This document shows, in pieces, positions 2,493 through 61,110 of a stretch of DNA of 64,000 nucleotides (positions are counted from its first letter, which is position 1; each line of letters opens with the position of its first letter). A model generated the notes under the pieces. It ran no database searches. It saw nothing but the letters and a program-made list of their open reading frames with translations, and was not told the DNA's origin. Made by a program: the position numbers and the translations under genes. Location: the NCBI RefSeq assembly GCF_988242995.1, contig NZ_OZ547043.1; one strand, 5' to 3'.

Positions 2493-3890
2493 TTATTGTT
2501 TATCCTGCATATACGGCGTGTAAACCCCGTTCAGACTGTGCAGGAAAGCTACGATATCATCCACATCCTCCTGCGGCAGCTCTTTGCCTACCTGATAGCG
2601 CAACATCAGTTTCACCGCCCCGTCCAGCGTCGGCACATCACCGCGATGGAAGTACGGTGCCGTTAGTGCAACGTTACGTAAACCGGGTACTTTCTGACGC
2701 AATTTATCGCGCTCTTCTTTAGTCACATTCATACGACCAATATCCGCCGCCGTAATTTCACCAAAGTTAAAGTCTTTTTTCAGCCCCAACGGTTCGAAGG
2801 AACGTCCGCCGAGAATAATACCACCATGACAAGTTGCACATTTATTATCTTTAAATAATTGATAGCCTTTTTTCTGTTGTGCCGTCAGCGCATTCTCATC
2901 TCCACGCAACCATTTATCAAATGGGGAATCCGGCGTAATTAATGTTTTCTCAAATTCAGCAATGGCATCAGTAATATTTTCGCCACTGAAACCTTGCGGA
3001 TAGACTTCGAGGAACTGCGCTTTAAGCTGCGGATCTTTTTCCAGCTTAGCAATAATTTCGTCCCAGGATTTCGACGCCATTTCAATCGGATTCAACGGCG
3101 GTCCACCAGCCTGATCCTGCAATGTTGCCGCACGACCATCCCAGAACTGCTCAACGTTAAATACTGAGTTAAATACCGTCGGCGCGTTAATCGGCCCCAC
3201 TGCGCCACCAACACCAATCGATGTTTTTCTGCCATCGACGCCCCCCGCATTCAACGCATGGCAATGAGCGCATGAAATGGTGCTATCCGCCGATAAACGG
3301 GGATCGTGATACAGCGCAAAGCCCAACGCCACTTTTTGCGCATCGGTAGGCAGTTTTTGCGGGATGGGCTGCACCGGTTCATTACGATGATCCGGTGCAG
3401 TGTCATTGCTGGCGTAATATTCCGCGCGCTGTTTTGCAATCCAGGCGAGTATTTCCGCCCGCTCTTCATCACTCACCTTACCCGCCCAGTGTAGCGCGGT
3501 ATAACGCGTTGGTGGCATGGTTTCATACTGCATCACCCATTCAATCTTATTCAGATCGCTTTGCGAAACGGGTTTATCAGCCAGCAGAGCCGCACGCACG
3601 GCCTCGAGGTTAAAAGATTTATATCCAAGCTTAATGTCGTAATCCATCAACTGTTTCGCGCCAGGAATATAATAATAGGCGGGTAATTCTGCCGAAGGCG
3701 TGTGGCAATAGTCGCATCCTTTTTCGCGGAGAAAGCCTAAAACCTGATTATTTTCACTGACAGCAGATGCCTGAACATCAGCCTGTTTACTGCGTTTATT
3801 ATCGTGGTACCACACATAACCAGATAACCCTAAATAGCAAATCGCGACGCCAGCCAGGCCGATCGCGGTAATACGTGAGACCATTTTCAT
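2493..3890 (-). CDS. yhjA: Di-haem cytochrome c peroxidase, 465 aa
   Basis: Track ORF MKMVSRITAIGLAGVAICYLGL...; contains CxxCH haem-binding motifs (CDYCH, CAHCH, CATCH); expected length and position. Confidence 0.93.
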   Translation of the reverse strand: MKMVSRITAIGLAGVAICYLGLSGYVWYHDNKRSKQADVQASAVSENNQVLGFLREKGCDYCHTPSAELPAYYYIPGAKQLMDYDIKLGYKSFNLEAVRAALLADKPVSQSDLNKIEWVMQYETMPPTRYTALHWAGKVSDEERAEILAWIAKQRAEYYASNDTAPDHRNEPVQPIPQKLPTDAQKVALGFALYHDPRLSADSTISCAHCHALNAGGVDGRKTSIGVGGAVGPINAPTVFNSVFNVEQFWDGRAATLQDQAGGPPLNPIEMASKSWDEIIAKLEKDPQLKAQFLEVYPQGFSGENITDAIAEFEKTLITPDSPFDKWLRGDENALTAQQKKGYQLFKDNKCATCHGGIILGGRSFEPLGLKKDFNFGEITAADIGRMNVTKEERDKLRQKVPGLRNVALTAPYFHRGDVPTLDGAVKLMLRYQVGKELPQEDVDDIVAFLHSLNGVYTPYMQDKQ

Positions 3891-4264
3891 TATTCTTCCC
3901 TCACGGTGGTGAGTTATTGTGACCCAGAAAATTTTCCAGAATGCTGCAAACGTCTCTGCGAGACAAAGCCATCATAAAAAACAGGGAAATATGCTTTTTG
4001 ATAGGAATCAATCAATTACATGAATATAAACTATCAATAAGATAGCCTGTGCCTATTACCCAGATCAGGAATGGCATATCATGATTGCGGCGAGAGCAGG
4101 ATTGAATGTTCTGAAAATGAAAAACAACACGAAATCTGTATTTTTATAAATTCCATGGATATTAGTGCGTTATATTTTTTGACAGGTAAATAAACGTGAT
4201 CCACCGCACGCTTTGTCGCCCACCAGGCGGAGCGAATGACTACCCTTAAAGAAAAGCCCGATAA

Positions 4265-5944
<1,680 letters not shown>

Positions 5945-24941: not shown

Positions 24942-27281
24942 TTACTCGTTATCCGGGTTAAGACGACGACGGCTGATAATACGCAGCAGACGCCACAGTA
25001 CCCATGCCAGCAGCACGACGCTGATTGCCGCCAGCACCGCCAGCAGAATCGGATGGTTTGCCAGCGCATACCATAAGCGTTCGAACCACGGCAGATGGCC
25101 AACGTAATAGACGTCGCCAACGCGTAGGCTATTGATACCGGACTCGCGGATCACCGCGACCGAACCGAACATGGTGGCGCGTTTGCCGCTATCGTTCACC
25201 GCATCGTTAAGCATTTCATAACCGCGTGGGCTATCTGCCAGCAGCGCAATCACGCTGCGCTGGTCGTTATACGGCGACTGGAAGCCAATCACCGCCGCCA
25301 TCGCACCGGAAGAGGTCAGCGTTGACTGGGTTTCTGCCGCGCGATCGCTCTCGTCCGGAACAATGCCGGGGAACGGGGTCTGGCGCATCGGCGTTTTCAC
25401 CCAGCTTTCGGTCGCCTGCACCAACAGGTCGATCTGCTTGTCGTCTTTCAGTTTGTCCGGGATACCACCGATGATCATGATGTCGGCATCTTTGCCCTGA
25501 ATGGTGCTGCCATCATCGGTCACCGTCAGATTAATCGCCGGGAAGCCCGCCTGTGCGCCGATAAAACCAACAGTATTCAGCAAGGTTTCCATCTGTGCTT
25601 CGTTAGGCGTTTTCGGCATCACGGTGATGGTTTGCGACAGATCCGCCATCCGGCTGAACGGGAAGCCCGCGTTAGCAAAGGCGCGTAGATCCGGCATCGG
25701 GATGAAGTGGTAATACTTCGAGAAGTCGATGGTGGAGTCGTCACCAATCACCACATGATTCTGCACCGGCTGGAAGGTAATACAGTTATCCACCGAACCG
25801 CCAGGCATCGGGTTCATATACTCAAAGTCAAAGCGCAGCTGGTTGGTCGCGCCCAGTTTCAGCGCCGGAATAGAGACATCCGTTTTGCCATCCAGCAAAC
25901 CTTGTAATACCGGAATCCGCAGCAGCAGGCGGTTCGCCTCCTGTTTGCTGCTCAGATTGAATGATTGCAGGAACTGGTTATTCAGGCTGATATCCATCCG
26001 CGAACTGTCTTTCACCGGCGGCATGGTGTAGCGGTAATTAATATCCATATCAATGCCGGTACTGCGCATCAGGTAGAGATCTGGCGGCAGGTTTAGCGAA
26101 ACATTAATCGCTGCTGGCTCAAGACCGCTGGATTGCAACTGTTCTTCATAGGTTTTCAGTTCACCAAAGGTGACCGGACGATCGGTACGCACCCAGTTCG
26201 GCGCATCGTACGGCTTACGCGGTAGCAGCGGTTTCACTTCATTCACTACCACGCTTTCACCACGGAACAGAATGTTACCCTGAGCGATACCTTTCGCTGC
26301 CTGCAACAGGTCTTTGTCGTCACGACCAAACACCACCAGCAGTTTGACGTAAGGATTCTGCGGATGGTTGATCATCTCAATCACCGGGGCTTTTACCGCC
26401 GGATGATCGCGCAGGAAATCCGGGCGTTTGTCATTGGTGGCAAAAACGATGGCATTGCGATCCGGCAATTGGTTATAGAGCACCGGGAAGTTCTGCCCAC
26501 GCCAGCCAGAACGCGAACCAAACCACGAGGCGACAATGGCAGATGCTTGTTGCAGCCCGACATCCGGCGCACCCGCAAAGACAATCGGCAAGGTGTTAGT
26601 ACGGTTATCACGCGGGTCAAAGAATGGTACCGGGAAGTGTGACAGGTCATTCTTCACATTCAGGGTCTGATAGGTCAAATCCAGTCCACTGCTCCGCCCA
26701 ACATCCAGCCAAAGCGTGGTGCTGGCCGGGTTTTCGCACACGTCCTGATAATGGCCGACAAACTCCAGCCGCACACGGTTGAAGTCGGTAATAAACAGTG
26801 GGTTAATGGGCATTTGCGCCAGCGTTTTTTTACCCAACTGTTCTTTGGTCACTGGCAGCACGCCCATCAGTTCATCATTGAGATAAACCTTTAACTGCGA
26901 CTGGACAGGCAGTAACGATGGCGATGGCGTGTATTCGAGGTTGAGCATCGCCTTCGTCACCACTTCATCGCTGCGCATACCAAACTCAATGCTGCCGTTC
27001 GGGTTAATGCCACGTAGCACCATGCTGCCCGGCGGCGGCGCAATTTGCGCAAAGGTCAGCTTCACATCACGCGAAGGACCGTTCTGCGCCACGATAGGGG
27101 CATCAGCGCCCTGCACGCCCGGCATCACTTGCCCAACCTGCGGATTTTGTTCCGTCTGGGCGGCTACAGCTGGCTCAGCATTGATCAGTGGTTGCGTTGC
27201 TGGCGTCGCCTGCGTCATGAAAGAGGGGAACGCACTCATCCCCATAGCCACTGCACAAATCCAGAATAGTTTTCTTTTCAT
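24942..27281 (-). CDS. bcsB: Cellulose synthase periplasmic subunit BcsB, 779 aa
   Basis: Track ORF 24942..27368 (808 aa); conserved start MKRKLFWICAVAMGMSAFPSFMTQA at codon 30. Confidence 0.94.
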   Translation of the reverse strand: MKRKLFWICAVAMGMSAFPSFMTQATPATQPLINAEPAVAAQTEQNPQVGQVMPGVQGADAPIVAQNGPSRDVKLTFAQIAPPPGSMVLRGINPNGSIEFGMRSDEVVTKAMLNLEYTPSPSLLPVQSQLKVYLNDELMGVLPVTKEQLGKKTLAQMPINPLFITDFNRVRLEFVGHYQDVCENPASTTLWLDVGRSSGLDLTYQTLNVKNDLSHFPVPFFDPRDNRTNTLPIVFAGAPDVGLQQASAIVASWFGSRSGWRGQNFPVLYNQLPDRNAIVFATNDKRPDFLRDHPAVKAPVIEMINHPQNPYVKLLVVFGRDDKDLLQAAKGIAQGNILFRGESVVVNEVKPLLPRKPYDAPNWVRTDRPVTFGELKTYEEQLQSSGLEPAAINVSLNLPPDLYLMRSTGIDMDINYRYTMPPVKDSSRMDISLNNQFLQSFNLSSKQEANRLLLRIPVLQGLLDGKTDVSIPALKLGATNQLRFDFEYMNPMPGGSVDNCITFQPVQNHVVIGDDSTIDFSKYYHFIPMPDLRAFANAGFPFSRMADLSQTITVMPKTPNEAQMETLLNTVGFIGAQAGFPAINLTVTDDGSTIQGKDADIMIIGGIPDKLKDDKQIDLLVQATESWVKTPMRQTPFPGIVPDESDRAAETQSTLTSSGAMAAVIGFQSPYNDQRSVIALLADSPRGYEMLNDAVNDSGKRATMFGSVAVIRESGINSLRVGDVYYVGHLPWFERLWYALANHPILLAVLAAISVVLLAWVLWRLLRIISRRRLNPDNE

Positions 27282-27291
27282 CGCGTTATCA

Positions 27292-34808: not shown

Positions 34809-34874
34809 GTTTGGATGCAAGAATGGCCCCCGTGGTGTTGTCAGGTGCATACCTGCAACGTGCGGGGGTTTTCT
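34809..34874 (+). ncRNA. Rdl-family antisense RNA (copy 1); coordinates approximate
   Basis: Plus-strand hairpin cccccgtggtgttgtcaggtgcatacctgcaacgtgcggggg followed by ttttctct, antisense to the ldr leader. Its 5' part differs from copy 2. Confidence 0.5.
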
Positions 34875-35291: not shown

Positions 35292-35357
35292 GTCTAGAGT
35301 CAAGATTAGCCCCCGTGGTGTTGTCAGGTGCATACCTGCAACGTGCGGGGGTTTTCT
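35292..35357 (+). ncRNA. rdlD: RdlD-like antisense RNA (copy 2); coordinates approximate
   Basis: ggtctagagtcaagattagcccccgtggtgttgtcaggtgcatacctgcaacgtgcgggggttttct: hairpin plus U-run, antisense to the ldr leader. Resembles RdlD as I recall it. Confidence 0.55.
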
Positions 35358-41096: not shown

Positions 41097-42704
41097 TTAT
41101 TCGATAGAGACGTTTTCGAAGTGATGTTTGCCTAATGGATCAACCACATAGCCTTTAACTTCTTTGCGTACCGGTTCAAACACGGTGGAGTGAGCGATGA
41201 TCAGTGCCGGAGCCTGATCGTGCATCACCACCTGTGCTTGTTTGTACAGTTCAACGCGCTTGTTGTGGTCGTCGGTGGCACGCGCCGGTTGAATCAGATC
41301 TTCAAACGGTTTGTAGCACCATTTTGAGTAGTTGGAGCCTTGTTCAGAGGCGGCGCAGCTGAACAGGGTGGCGAAGAAGTTATCCGGATCCCCGTTATCG
41401 CCAGTCCAGCCCATCATTACCGTCTGGTGCTCGCCATCTTTCGCACGCTTGAGGTACTCACCCCATTCGTAGGTGACAATTTTGGCCTGCACGCCGACTT
41501 TCGCCCAGTCTGCCTGAATCATCTCTGCCATGCGGCGAGCGTTCGGGTTATACGGACGTTGTACCGGCATTGCCCACAGGTCGATGGAGAAGCCTTTTTC
41601 CAGGCCCGCTTCTTTCAGCAAGGCTTTCGCTTTTTCGGGATCGTAGGTGTAGTCCTGAACGTCGTCGTTATAGCCCCACATGGTTGGCGGGATCAGGTTT
41701 TTCGCTGCCACGCCCGCGCCCTGATAAACCGCTTTGATGATAGCGTCTTTGTTCACCGCGTAGGTCAGAGCCTGGCGAACTTTCACGTCATCAAGTGGTT
41801 TTTTCTGCACGTTATATGAAAGATAGCCGACGTTAAGCCCCGGCATTTCCATCAGGTTGATGGATTTATCCTGCTTCATGCGAGCGATGTCTGCCGGGTT
41901 CGGGTACGGCATCACCTGGCATTCATTCTTCTGCAATTTCGCGTAACGCACGGAAGCATCAGGGGTAATAGAGAAGACCAGCGTATCGATCTGCGGTTTG
42001 GTGCCCCAGTAGCCATCAAACGCTTTGTAGCGGATACGGGAATCTTTTTGATACTGCTGTAACTGGAACGGACCGGTGCCGATTGGGTTGAGGTCCAGTT
42101 TTTCCGGCGTACCGGCTTTCATCATCGCGTCAGCATATTCTTTTGACAGAATAGAGGCGAAGTCCATTGCCAGATCCGCGAGGAACGGCGCTTCCGGGCG
42201 AGTCAGCACGAACTGAACGGTGTTATCGTCCACCTTTTTCACTTCGCTGATCAGCTCCGGCAAGCCCATGCCTTCGAAGTATTCGTAGCTGCCGCCAGAG
42301 ACTTTATGGTACGGGTTTTGCGCGTTTTTCTGACGATCGAACGAGAACACCACGTCATCGGCGTTCAGTTCGCGCGTCGGTTTGAATTCTTTGTTGTCGT
42401 GCCACTTCACACCTTTACGCAGATGGAAGGTATAGGTTTTTCCGTCTTCGCTGACTTCCCACTTTTCAGCGAGGCCCGGGATTACTTCGGTGGTGCCGAT
42501 TTTAAATTCAACCAGGCGGTTATAAAGCGGCACGGAAGAGGCGTCATAGGTGGTACCGGAGGTAAACAGCTGCGGGTTAAACCCTTCCGGAGATCCTTCT
42601 GAGCAATAAACCAGAGTTTTAGCCTGAACACTTGCTGCGACGGTCATAGCCACCAGGCTGAGACCAAGCTTCAGCATCCCTGACTTTTTCAAGGAAATAC
42701 GCAT
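41097..42704 (-). CDS. dppA: Periplasmic dipeptide-binding protein DppA, 535 aa
   Basis: Track ORF MRISLKKSGMLKLGLSLVAMTVAASVQAKTLVYCSEGSPEGFNPQLF... with signal peptide. Confidence 0.96.
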   Translation of the reverse strand: MRISLKKSGMLKLGLSLVAMTVAASVQAKTLVYCSEGSPEGFNPQLFTSGTTYDASSVPLYNRLVEFKIGTTEVIPGLAEKWEVSEDGKTYTFHLRKGVKWHDNKEFKPTRELNADDVVFSFDRQKNAQNPYHKVSGGSYEYFEGMGLPELISEVKKVDDNTVQFVLTRPEAPFLADLAMDFASILSKEYADAMMKAGTPEKLDLNPIGTGPFQLQQYQKDSRIRYKAFDGYWGTKPQIDTLVFSITPDASVRYAKLQKNECQVMPYPNPADIARMKQDKSINLMEMPGLNVGYLSYNVQKKPLDDVKVRQALTYAVNKDAIIKAVYQGAGVAAKNLIPPTMWGYNDDVQDYTYDPEKAKALLKEAGLEKGFSIDLWAMPVQRPYNPNARRMAEMIQADWAKVGVQAKIVTYEWGEYLKRAKDGEHQTVMMGWTGDNGDPDNFFATLFSCAASEQGSNYSKWCYKPFEDLIQPARATDDHNKRVELYKQAQVVMHDQAPALIIAHSTVFEPVRKEVKGYVVDPLGKHHFENVSIE

Positions 42705-43467
42705 TATTCTGCTCCAATTGTGATGTTTGTTGTTTTAACCCTTTGCAGTGGGTTGTCGCTGCCTGACCTTTTTTGTTTTTTGCCCGGTCGGGTCAACGTT
42801 ATGAGGTGGGGATGCCGTACTAATTAACATCAGTGTAACAGTGCGGATCCTCCATAAAATGCCCCTCGTGACCTACAATCTGTCAACAGAATGTGAAAAC
42901 GTCAATACAGCCAACCGGGATTTACACCAACGGTGAGAATCCACAAACAAAGATTAAAAAAACTTCAAACAGCTATTTGCAGCAGAGAAATTTGTGCTAC
43001 TCCAACATGACCAGAACAATCAGCTTAATATTTAGCAACAATTGGTGATTAAGTTTTATGCATTTAGTGAAAAAAATCTGAGGAAAAGGTGGATATCTGA
43101 GCGATTAATACCATGAACGCTAAAACGCACAGGGGAAAATGCCAGCGCCAGCCATAAGTAACGCAAAAAAAGATTTAAGCAAATATAAAAAAAGACAATG
43201 GTTTCTGTCACAAATCCGTTAATGGATAGTGAGATATGGGGCGCAAATTTGGCAGGGAAATATGTGGTGTGTTGCCGTTTAGATCGGATAAGACGGATAC
43301 GCTGTATCCCACAATGAGTGCGGTGCCGAATTTGGTCGGTGCCAGAGGATTACTCGCCACTTCGTGGCTCGCCCTGCGGGCCGTTGCTGGCGCAACGTTC
43401 TCTCGCTTCGCTCGAGTCGAACCTCCCTGCCCCCGGAGGTTCTCATCCTCTTCAGGCCGCAGAAAGC

Positions 43468-43495
43468 AAAAAAACCAGCCCGTAGGCTGGTTTTT
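43468..43495 (-). terminator. Intrinsic terminator downstream of proK
   Basis: aaaaaaccagcccgtaggctggttttt: perfect ccagcc/ggctgg stem with U-run on the proK (minus) strand. Confidence 0.7.
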
Positions 43496-43501
43496 CTAAA
43501 T

Positions 43502-43578
<77 letters not shown>

Positions 43579-54654: not shown

Positions 54655-54775
54655 ACTTTTATCCACTTTATTGCTGTTTACGGTCCTGATGACAGGACCG
54701 TTTTCCAACCGATTAATCATAAATATGAAAAATAATTGTTGCATCACCCGCCAATGCGTGGCTTAATGCACATCA

Positions 54776-54934
54776 ACGGTTTGACGTACAGACCATTAAA
54801 GCAGTGTAGTAAGGCAAGTCCCTTCAAGAGTTATCGTTGATACCCCTCGTAGTGCACATTCCTTTAACGCTTCAAAATCTGTAAAGCACGCCATATCGCC
54901 GAAAGGCACACTTAATTATTAAAGGTAATACACT
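54776..54934 (+). promoter_or_regulatory. cspA long 5' UTR (cold-box / RNA thermosensor leader)
   Basis: The leader acggtttgacgtacagaccattaaagcagtgtagtaaggcaagtcccttcaagagttatcgttgatacccctcgtagtgcacattcc... precedes the cspA ATG by about 159 nt. A -35/-10 pair (ttgcat ... gcttaat) and an AT-rich UP element lie just upstream. Confidence 0.8.
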
Positions 54935-55147
54935 ATGTCCGGTAAAATGACTGGTATCGTAAAATGGTTCAACGCTGACAAAGGCTTCGGCTTCATCACT
55001 CCTGACGATGGCTCTAAAGACGTGTTCGTACACTTCTCTGCTATCCAGAACGATGGTTACAAATCTCTGGACGAAGGTCAGAAAGTGTCCTTCACCATCG
55101 AAAGCGGCGCTAAAGGCCCGGCAGCTGGTAACGTAACCAGCCTGTAA
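54935..55147 (+). CDS. cspA: Major cold-shock protein CspA, 70 aa
   Basis: Track [73 protein letters not shown]; RNP1 motif KGFGFI. Confidence 0.97.
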
Positions 55148-55173
55148 TCTCTGCTTAAAAGCACAGAATCTAA

Positions 55174-55208
55174 GATCCCTGCCATTTGGCGGGGATTTTT
55201 TTATTTGT
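55174..55208 (+). terminator. cspA intrinsic terminator
   Basis: atccctgccatttggcggggat followed by ttttttta. Confidence 0.7.
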
Positions 55209-55334: not shown

Positions 55335-55487
55335 TTACTCTTTCAAATTGCAGGCTAAAAATGCCGCCAGCTCATAACTCCCCTGTTTAATATGCAATTC
55401 ACACAGTGAATCTCTTATCATCCAGGTGAAAAATAAAAGCGTGAAACAAATCACTATTAAAGAAAGTAATCTATATTTCTGCGGCAT
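55335..55487 (-). CDS. hokA: Hok-family type I toxin HokA, 50 aa
   Basis: Track ORF 55335..55547 (70 aa); the last 50 codons MPQKYRLLSLIVICFTLLFFTWMIRDSLCELHIKQGSYELAAFLACNLKE are the Hok toxin. The in-frame upstream extension probably covers the mok/leader region. Confidence 0.85.
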   Translation of the reverse strand: MPQKYRLLSLIVICFTLLFFTWMIRDSLCELHIKQGSYELAAFLACNLKE

Positions 55488-55766
55488 TCCCAGCCCCCTA
55501 TGTTGATTTCCAACGAGTAAGAGGCTAACCTTATGGTGTTCAGGCATAGGGTAGCCTCACTTTGATTTATAGTCAGGTGGGGCTTTTCTCTGTCTGCCTT
55601 TCGGTGAATACCTGAGACAAACAGTCTCAAGCACCCGCAGCTATTCTAGCTTAATAAGTTCGTTTCTTCTCCTTGATATAATCCTAAAAAAATCTCATAA
55701 AATTAATATATGAGACAATCTTTATTCAGCAGAAGATTATTAAAGGTTGCTCTATTATTTAGCGAT

Positions 55767-60405: not shown

Positions 60406-61110
60406 AAATGCGCCTATAAGGCTCTCTTACCAGCCGCGCCCTAACAGGCGCACACGATCTGACATTTGCATCCAACTTCGTTACTTACGGCCCGTAAACG
60501 GGCTGCCCGGATAGGGAATCGATAACTGCTCTCCCATTTTATCCTCTTCAAGCTGGTGCTTTATGTAATCCTGTATCTTCGCCGTGTTCTTACCCACTGT
60601 ATCGACGTAGTACCCTCTGCACCAGAACTCCCTGTTCCTGTATTTGAATTTCAAATCACCAAACTGCTCGTAAAGCATCAGACTGCTTTTCCCTTTCAGA
60701 TATCCCATAAAGCCGGATACGCTCATTTTGGGCGGGATCTCCACAAGCATATGGATATAATCTGCACAGCATTCAGCTTCCAGAATCCGTACGCTTTTCC
60801 ACTCACACAGCTTTCTCAAAATACTGCCTATTGCTCTACGCTTCTCTCTGTAGAACACCTGTCTTCGGTATTTTGGCGCAAAAACTATGTGATATTTACA
60901 GTTCCATCGGGTGTGCGCTAAGCTCTTTTCGTTCCCCATTGGGACCCCCTTTTGATTTCTTGTTTGACACTTGCAGTTGCCAGACCGCAAAGTGTTTTAA
61001 CAAATCAAAAGGGGTTTTAATAACTGGCTCAAAGCTGAAAGCTTTCCGGAACCCCCAGCCTAGCTGGGGGTTTTCTGTGCACAATAAAGGCCCGGTCACA
61101 TTGGACTGAC
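60405..61110 (-). mobile_element. IS200-like insertion sequence (IS200/IS605 family); boundaries approximate within about 30 bp
   Basis: Single Y1 (HuH) transposase gene with about 75 bp after the stop and about 170 bp before the start. The upstream end carries the characteristic perfect hairpin acccccagcctagctgggggtt. Total about 0.7 kb, as expected for IS200; no terminal inverted repeats, consistent with the family. Confidence 0.8.
60481..60939 (-). CDS. tnpA: IS200-family transposase TnpA (Y1 HuH transposase), 152 aa
   Basis: Track ORF 60481..60990; conserved start MGNEKSLAHTRWNCKYHIVFAPKYRRQVFY; HuH motif (HMLVEI) and catalytic Tyr region (RGYYVDTVG) present. Confidence 0.92.
   Translation of the reverse strand: MGNEKSLAHTRWNCKYHIVFAPKYRRQVFYREKRRAIGSILRKLCEWKSVRILEAECCADYIHMLVEIPPKMSVSGFMGYLKGKSSLMLYEQFGDLKFKYRNREFWCRGYYVDTVGKNTAKIQDYIKHQLEEDKMGEQLSIPYPGSPFTGRK

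Follow-up and report, generated by a model that had tools for sequence, protein, structure and literature searches.

The 797-bp non-coding interval that separates proK from dppA (positions 42705..43501 of the 64,000-nucleotide stretch of DNA analysed here, hereafter the window) is probably a mosaic of two transcription units running in the same direction, namely the tail of proK and the control region of dppA. Both flanking genes lie on the minus strand and, reading from proK towards dppA, the parts are ordered as follows: the proK terminator, a tRNA-linked repeat (RtT/TLR), a decayed REP, a 346-bp module, and the dppA promoter and leader. The proK-side third of the interval (43216-43501) would thus form the tail of the proK unit, composed of an intrinsic terminator, one TLR and the decayed REP, and the dppA-side 511 bp would form the dppA control region. 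All of the named parts belong to known classes, and the larger share of what is described below is already known. The 346-bp module is the sole part of the interval without an explanation in known annotation.

A sequence-only reading of this DNA had pointed to a long gap between proK and dppA and had ended it at position 43467. The gap itself is real; its extent needed correction, position 43467 being the boundary between the 5’ edge of the RtT/TLR and the proK terminator, and the true end of the interval being 43501. The gap was rightly called unusually long: on a crude gene map of the whole 64-kb window (ORFs of at least 110 aa), the inter-ORF gap that includes proK measures 965 bp and ranks second of 40, the median being 140 bp. 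The longest run of the window free of such ORFs on this crude map is 24942-27291 (2350 bp), which may hold small genes or a pseudogene. Thousands of E. coli genomes have this layout annotated or directly alignable, the interval being matched in 5422 of 5426 complete genomes. We also assembled 80 DppA loci, one genome per species, 58 of which have proK upstream; in these 58 Enterobacteriaceae genomes, the proK-dppA spacer ranges from 620 to 1657 bp, with a single outlier of 3322 bp. As for composition, the description of the region as AT-rich is correct for 42870-43215, i.e. the module (36% GC), and incorrect for 43333-43467, i.e. the TLR (64% GC); the whole intergenic region (42705-43501) is 45% GC and the whole window 51.6%.

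The absence of a credible ORF between 42705 and 43467 was upheld by each of the four approaches used. Firstly, across the 58 genomes, the longest frame that is open in at least 80% of them has 28 codons. Secondly, conservation of the interval in the same 58 genomes shows no 3-nt periodicity, identity being equal in the three phases. Thirdly, an NCBIfam search with the four longest ORFs of the interval returned no match. Finally, PGAP annotates no gene in the interval in four E. coli records (K-12, O169, O157 and O104). A hidden ORF was rejected on the basis of this 28-codon limit on shared open frames and of the NCBIfam result.

On the proK side, the gene itself, which encodes tRNA-Pro(CGG), was located at 43502..43578 on the minus strand (ARAGORN; Rfam tRNA, 60.7 bits), with eptB lying further on past it. 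Its intrinsic terminator (43461..43497, minus strand) is composed of a 13-bp hairpin (43468-43497) followed by the U run UUUUUUUGCUUUCU, i.e. the stable G+C-containing hairpin placed directly before a U run that defines this class. The hairpin was not called in a strict pattern scan for terminators; its predicted folding energy is -20.7 kcal/mol (z = -4.0), which none of 200 shuffles equalled. The window carries a minority allele of this terminator (43468-43501), with ACCAGCCUACGGGCUGGU in place of GCCUGCUCAACGAGCAGGC, and 157 of 5426 complete E. coli genomes share this allele. K-12 has a stem that is wholly different in sequence and equal in predicted stability (-20.1 kcal/mol). Equal computed stability of two unlike stems points to selection for structure.

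The next part, 34 nt downstream of proK and on the same strand, is one full unit of the TLR, or Rfam RtT, family (RF00391; 43333..43467, minus strand). The match covers model positions 1-130 of 130 with 98.3 bits against a gathering score of 45 (E = 2e-20), and PGAP calls an “RtT sRNA” at the corresponding position of both K-12 and O169. The arrangement of a proK-linked TLR is common to most genera. In the window, the 3’ end of the TLR, AAUCCUCUGGCACCGACCA, agrees with the 3’ end of proK, AAUCCUCUAUCACCGACCA, at 17 of 19 nt, and is thus near-identical rather than identical to it; the two ends agree at 19 of 19 nt in E. albertii and are identical in the K-12 alignment. Over 46 TLR copies from other genera, a mean of 17.7 of 19 nt is shared with the 3’ end of the adjacent tRNA. 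In many genera, namely Enterobacter, Lelliottia, Leclercia, Buttiauxella and Cedecea, tRNA-Pro(CGG) is replaced by tRNA-Pro(UGG), which has a different acceptor stem. The TLR end follows the resident tRNA, switching between the CGG type and the UGG type (the tRNA-Pro(UGG) end being ...CUCUCUCGCCGACCA). This joint change of tRNA and TLR, as seen in the aligned loci, points either to their evolving in concert or to their joint replacement as one unit.

Variation in the number of TLR units is equally evident. Eight Escherichia genomes contain 0.3, 1.0 or 1.3 units: one unit is present in the window, O169 and Escherichia sp. E1V33, 1.3 units in K-12 and E. albertii, and nothing beyond the terminator and a 44-nt TLR head is left in O157, O104 and another E. 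coli. Across genera, the number of tandem units ranges from 0 to 3. Judged from these alignments, TLR copy number behaves as that of a tandem repeat, the unit of which extends from one copy of the tRNA 3’ end to the next. The terminator, TLR and REP belong to proK, and their copy number differs among strains and genera. Apparent identity across genera is only 15-30% in the proK-side third (43216-43501), which is therefore effectively unalignable at that distance. The proK tail is evolutionarily fluid, tandem-repeat units being gained and lost via the repeated tRNA 3’ end.

The TLR also resembles the 3’ part of tRNA-Pro split within the T loop, in the order GGGAGGUUCGA, a GC-rich core of about 68 nt, and AUCCUCUGGCACCGACCA, where GGGAGGUUCGA agrees exactly with 10 nt of the tRNA T arm. 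The Rfam RtT consensus shows the equivalent split relative to tRNA-Tyr. This resemblance may hint at the origin of such repeats. RtT and tRNA-linked repeats have reportedly been treated by Egan & Landy 1978, Bösl & Kersten 1991 and Rudd 1999. In K-12, TLRs are described as 22 copies at ten loci, each terminating in a copy of the last 18-19 nt of the tRNA or rRNA before it, and as a family without known function (Stenum et al. 2021, PMC8144298). The window TLR conforms to that description in matching the full covariance model, in lying directly after a tRNA on the same strand, in carrying a copy of the tRNA 3’ end, and in its tandem behaviour. It departs from the hallmarks of the family in that it is a single unit, matches at 17/19 instead of 19/19, and lies behind an intrinsic terminator; unlike in RtT RNA, its ends match tRNA-Pro and not tRNA-Tyr.

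Could the TLR be a functional regulatory sRNA that acts on dppA or on other genes? We consider this quite improbable. Such a role would agree with the widespread occurrence of the repeat after proK in many genera, with its stable predicted fold (-57.7 kcal/mol, z = -2.2), and with the observation that rRNA-linked TLRs are transcribed, processed and bound by Hfq and CsrA in vitro (PMC8144298). However, tRNA-linked TLRs have a CsrA-binder score below 0.01, the family has no known function, and the phenotype first ascribed to RtT has been retracted (PMC8144298). Moreover, presence and copy number of the TLR vary within E. coli, and the strains that have the 44-nt head alone keep an unchanged dppA control region. 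The position of the repeat behind a strong terminator also speaks against a regulatory role: because the -20.7 kcal/mol hairpin separates proK from the TLR, transcription of the latter would need read-through, which would yield a TLR ending in a copy of the tRNA 3’ end. A 55-aa Arg-rich ORF within the TLR, examined as a candidate Tpr-like protein, gave no family match. Most likely, then, the TLR is a passively maintained tandem repeat that is transcribed only through terminator read-through.

Between the TLR and the module, alignment reveals a decayed REP at about 43275..43315, left over from a BIME that other strains keep intact. Its aligned counterpart in K-12, O157 and O104 is the second REP of the BIME; in the window and in O169, the first REP is absent and an 8-bp insertion is present. 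In E. coli GPEC403-625, an IS621 element (IS110 family) interrupts the BIME at a point that lies between module and TLR head and is equivalent to window positions ~43272-43330. This IS621 spans 3068-4440 of the extracted locus, and a PGAP call for a hypothetical protein of 166 aa spans the junction. IS621 targets REP sequences (Choi et al. 2003, as cited in PMC10888264). The region resembles known REP/BIME and IS621 systems in that the window aligns to a known BIME and at least one strain has an IS621 insertion; unlike an intact BIME, the window keeps one decayed REP, together with the 8-bp insertion. About 29% of the megablast rows cover just the first 568 nt of the query, and this partial coverage suggests that rearrangements may be frequent at the REP.

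We now turn to the dppA side. dppA is among the most strongly expressed enteric transporter genes and is a model sRNA target. In the window, its coding sequence (41097..42704, minus strand) encodes a protein of 535 aa that is 100% identical to Escherichia DppA. The start codon, taken from the ORF list and the translation, is at 42702..42704 (minus strand), preceded at -11..-8 by the Shine-Dalgarno sequence GGAG (42712..42715, minus strand), and GGAGC is invariant in 14 genera. The long leader that the sequence-only reading had attributed to dppA was confirmed, its length being 165 nt (42705..42869, minus strand): as the insert of a published dppA::gfp fusion has its 5’ end at -165 (PMC1807950), we placed the transcription start at A 42869. 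In the 240 bp that directly precede dppA, the leader included, the window and K-12 do not differ. A core promoter, P1 (42877..42905, minus strand), fits the -165 start; it comprises the -35 hexamer TTGACG (42900-42905), a 17-bp spacer, TG at 42884-42885 and the -10 hexamer CAGATT (42877-42882). Both TATTGACG and CAGATT are invariant in all 58 genomes. P1 was not listed by the consensus promoter scan because its -10 hexamer is weak. As a sigma-70-type promoter with a TG-extended -10, P1 would start the dppA transcript at 42869.

Control by the GcvB sRNA, also anticipated by that reading, is equally well founded. The published GcvB R1 target of dppA extends from -41 to -8 (CAAAGGGUUAAAACAACAAACAUCACAAUUGGAG; PMC3415461 Table S6) and is unchanged in the window, where the C/A-rich target AAAACAACAAACAUCACAAUUGGAG, delineated from the published site and RNAduplex, was placed at 42712..42748 (minus strand). 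We confirmed the GcvB sequence at 100% identity in a check against 5425 E. coli genomes, and searched for its seed-pairing site near the dppA ribosome-binding site. RNAduplex pairs GcvB nt 61-92 with -44..-10 at -29.9 kcal/mol, an energy that 5 of 500 shuffles equalled; no other site of the interval pairs as well, and this one adjoins the Shine-Dalgarno sequence. dppA is a verified GcvB R1 target (PMC9299463), Hfq has a high affinity for the 5’ 166 nt of its mRNA (PMC4104026), and GcvB/Hfq-dependent repression of dppA has been shown in both E. coli and Salmonella (PMC1807950, PMC9299463, PMC4104026). Further upstream in the leader, the A-rich tract AAAAAACAAAAAA (42769..42781, minus strand) is conserved across genera and is likely to be an Hfq distal-face (ARN) site. 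As published, Hfq and the GcvB R1 seed act at the C/A-rich site that abuts the Shine-Dalgarno sequence, thereby repressing translation. In having a K-12-identical leader, an R1 target abutting the Shine-Dalgarno sequence and an A-rich Hfq-type tract upstream, the window shows no difference from the GcvB-dppA system, i.e. it presents the same control in another E. coli strain. This control has reportedly been the subject of Urbanowski 2000, Sharma 2007, Pulvermacher 2008, and Urban & Vogel 2007.

The leader is 157-175 nt long among genera, with a few at 220-287 nt. The latter are due to leader insertions of ~55-125 nt, seen in Buttiauxella, Klebsiella michiganensis and Atlantibacter. In Buttiauxella massiliensis, the insertion lies inside the C/A-rich region of the GcvB site, just 5’ of ACAUCAC-GGAG.

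The remaining part of the interval, the far-upstream module, spans 346 bp at 42870..43215 (-166..-511 from the ATG) and was delimited by cross-genus alignment. The sequence-only reading would have been contradicted had no conserved elements been found further upstream of dppA; alignment across species showed instead that conservation extends to about -511 and then stops abruptly. In 55 non-Escherichia genomes, conservation reaches at least 90% at 46% of module positions. The module has a mean identity of 0.71 to the window, compared with 0.65 at third codon positions of dppA and 0.27 beyond -511. Several blocks stand out, among them B1 (TTTTGTGACATATTCCATTG, about 43185-43214), B3 (CAGCATTTTCCGCTG) and B6 (GTAGCAYAAATTTCYCTGCTG). 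B1 is the best-conserved of the distal blocks and sits at the sharp upstream edge of conservation.

The length of the module is also fixed. The stretch from 43222 to 42860 measures 363 nt in 47 genomes, 364 nt in 8 and 362 nt in 3, and in 72 of 80 loci, which represent more than 25 genera, block B1 (CCATTG) lies 316±1 bp from the promoter. The leader next to it varies in length, from 157-175 nt up to 287 nt, while the module does not. The fixed B1-promoter spacing was also observed at loci without proK upstream and, because it persists there, the module belongs to dppA. In a limited literature search, we found no description of this length-locked, family-wide conservation; it is apparently undescribed, and we make no claim of newness for it.

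What does the module do? One explanation is that it contains a distal dppA promoter, P2, located in B1, with a start near 43175 and a leader of ~470 nt, in which case conservation would reflect control at the RNA level (sRNA, Hfq or RNase sites). A promoter-like match, GTGACA-18-TATATT, indeed lies in B1 (43182..43211, minus strand) and scores 10/12 in the consensus scan, making it a possible, weak P2; B1 marks the upstream edge of conservation, and U-rich tracts lie downstream of it. The GTGACA hexamer is intact in 49 of 57 genomes. However, the key final T of the -10 hexamer is missing in most genera: the -10-like hexamer ends in T in about 20 of 57 genomes, TATATA occurs most often, and in Salmonella diarizonae the hexamer reads GCCGTT. 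In addition, no conserved RNA structure was detected on either strand of the module (SCI at most 0.3, consensus energy about 0), the module contains no further good GcvB R1 sites, the start adopted both in published fusions and in work on Hfq is that at -165/166 (PMC1807950, PMC4104026), and strict length invariance would be unexpected of an unstructured RNA. We thus regard a distal promoter as an unlikely explanation for the module.

Conservation of the module could also mean that it is the gene of a separate small RNA or of a tiny protein, which we consider very improbable indeed. An Rfam search of the module gave no match even at E values up to 10, no terminator-like site was found in the pattern scan, and neither strand shows conserved structure. 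Of the features sought as marks of an sRNA gene in 42870-43215 (a promoter, a terminator, structure or an Rfam match), the weak promoter-like match alone was found. On these grounds, a small RNA in the AT-rich part was rejected. The earlier suggestion that the region leaves room for further regulatory sites or a small RNA was right in that more elements are present, although these differ from what was expected: the RtT element annotated as an sRNA belongs to proK, and the AT-rich part has no sRNA signs. As for a small protein, an 11-codon ORF is found at 43120-43155 on the minus strand, with its ATG at 43153 (-449). It reads MAGAGIFPCAF in the window and MDNLSIFRCAF in many genera, and both its start and its stop are kept in many genera. 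Nevertheless, no Shine-Dalgarno sequence precedes the ATG, substitutions are mostly non-synonymous, Cedecea and Buttiauxella have no stop codon, no 3-nt periodicity is seen, and PGAP annotates nothing in the module. The 11-codon ORF probably arises by chance from the conservation of DNA blocks.

We infer instead, with moderate confidence, that the module operates at the DNA level as a protein-binding array that tunes the dppA promoter, with Lrp as the one reported binder. The module would act as DNA, in the form of a contiguous array of protein-binding sites that sets the activity of the dppA promoter. Upstream of dppA, a 3.4-fold ChIP enrichment of Lrp without site resolution has been reported, together with a positive effect (PMC2689187); Lrp is a candidate binder of the module, and other nucleoid or global regulators may be involved. 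We searched the module with the Lrp consensus YAGHAWATTWTDCTR, allowing at most 4 mismatches, and obtained 12 matches versus 7.1±2.7 in shuffles, a marginal enrichment (p about 0.05). Block B3, CAGCATTTTCCGCTG, fits 12 of 15 positions of the Lrp consensus when counted by eye. Against an assignment to Lrp, this block is altered to CTGGCATTTTCCCCTG within Escherichia itself. Consensus scans for IHF, Fis, CRP, ArcA, FNR, Fur, NarL, ArgR, Nac and GcvA identified no factor with convincing enrichment, the matches to ArcA (p = 0.015 at 5 mismatches) and CRP (p = 0.065) being weak half-sites. As a test for DNA curvature or helical phasing, AA/TT periodicity at 10.5 bp reached p = 0.013 in the window, yet 4 of 6 coding controls were equally “significant”, which makes the signal uninformative; the conservation profile has no significant period (global p 0.32).

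Extended, multi-site upstream regions of the Lrp type are known, e.g. at ilvIH, gltBDF and pap. The dppA module resembles them in being long, AT-rich and conserved, in the Lrp ChIP signal at dppA (PMC2689187) and in its degenerate Lrp-like motifs. It differs from them in reaching -345 from the start site, which is longer than most, and in the invariance of its length across genera, which is stricter than known for such regions; in comparison with them, its Lrp sites are candidates predicted from motifs. A further explanation, possible and in our view rather unlikely, is that the module is a family-wide architectural element of dppA, either a length-locked nucleoprotein platform (e.g. an Lrp-type wrap) or an unstructured long leader. 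If true, each base pair of spacing would matter, and this would explain why the 316±1 bp distance is maintained in 72 of 80 genomes while the leader and the proK tail vary. The reading that we favour remains that of a DNA-level protein-binding array.

Other RNA elements were detected elsewhere in the window. Two matches to the rdlD antitoxin RNA lie 483 bp apart on the plus strand (34809-34874 and 35292-35357), a pairing that indicates tandem LDR toxin-antitoxin repeats upstream of the dpp operon. Matches above the Rfam gathering score were also obtained for a cspA thermoregulator (54775-55202, plus strand), a sok-like antitoxin RNA (55485-55636, minus strand) and the Hfq-binding sRNA STnc490 (60949-61072, minus strand).

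Together, these results account for the seemingly empty ~800 bp upstream of dppA, which resolve into the proK tail and a 511-bp dppA control region. Assigning the TLR to proK prevents this repeat from being mistaken for a regulator of dppA, and the co-variation of its 3’ end with the neighbouring tRNA across genera provides a clean illustration of TLR evolution. The question that remains is narrowed to a single module of 346 bp, the strict length conservation of which makes it directly testable.
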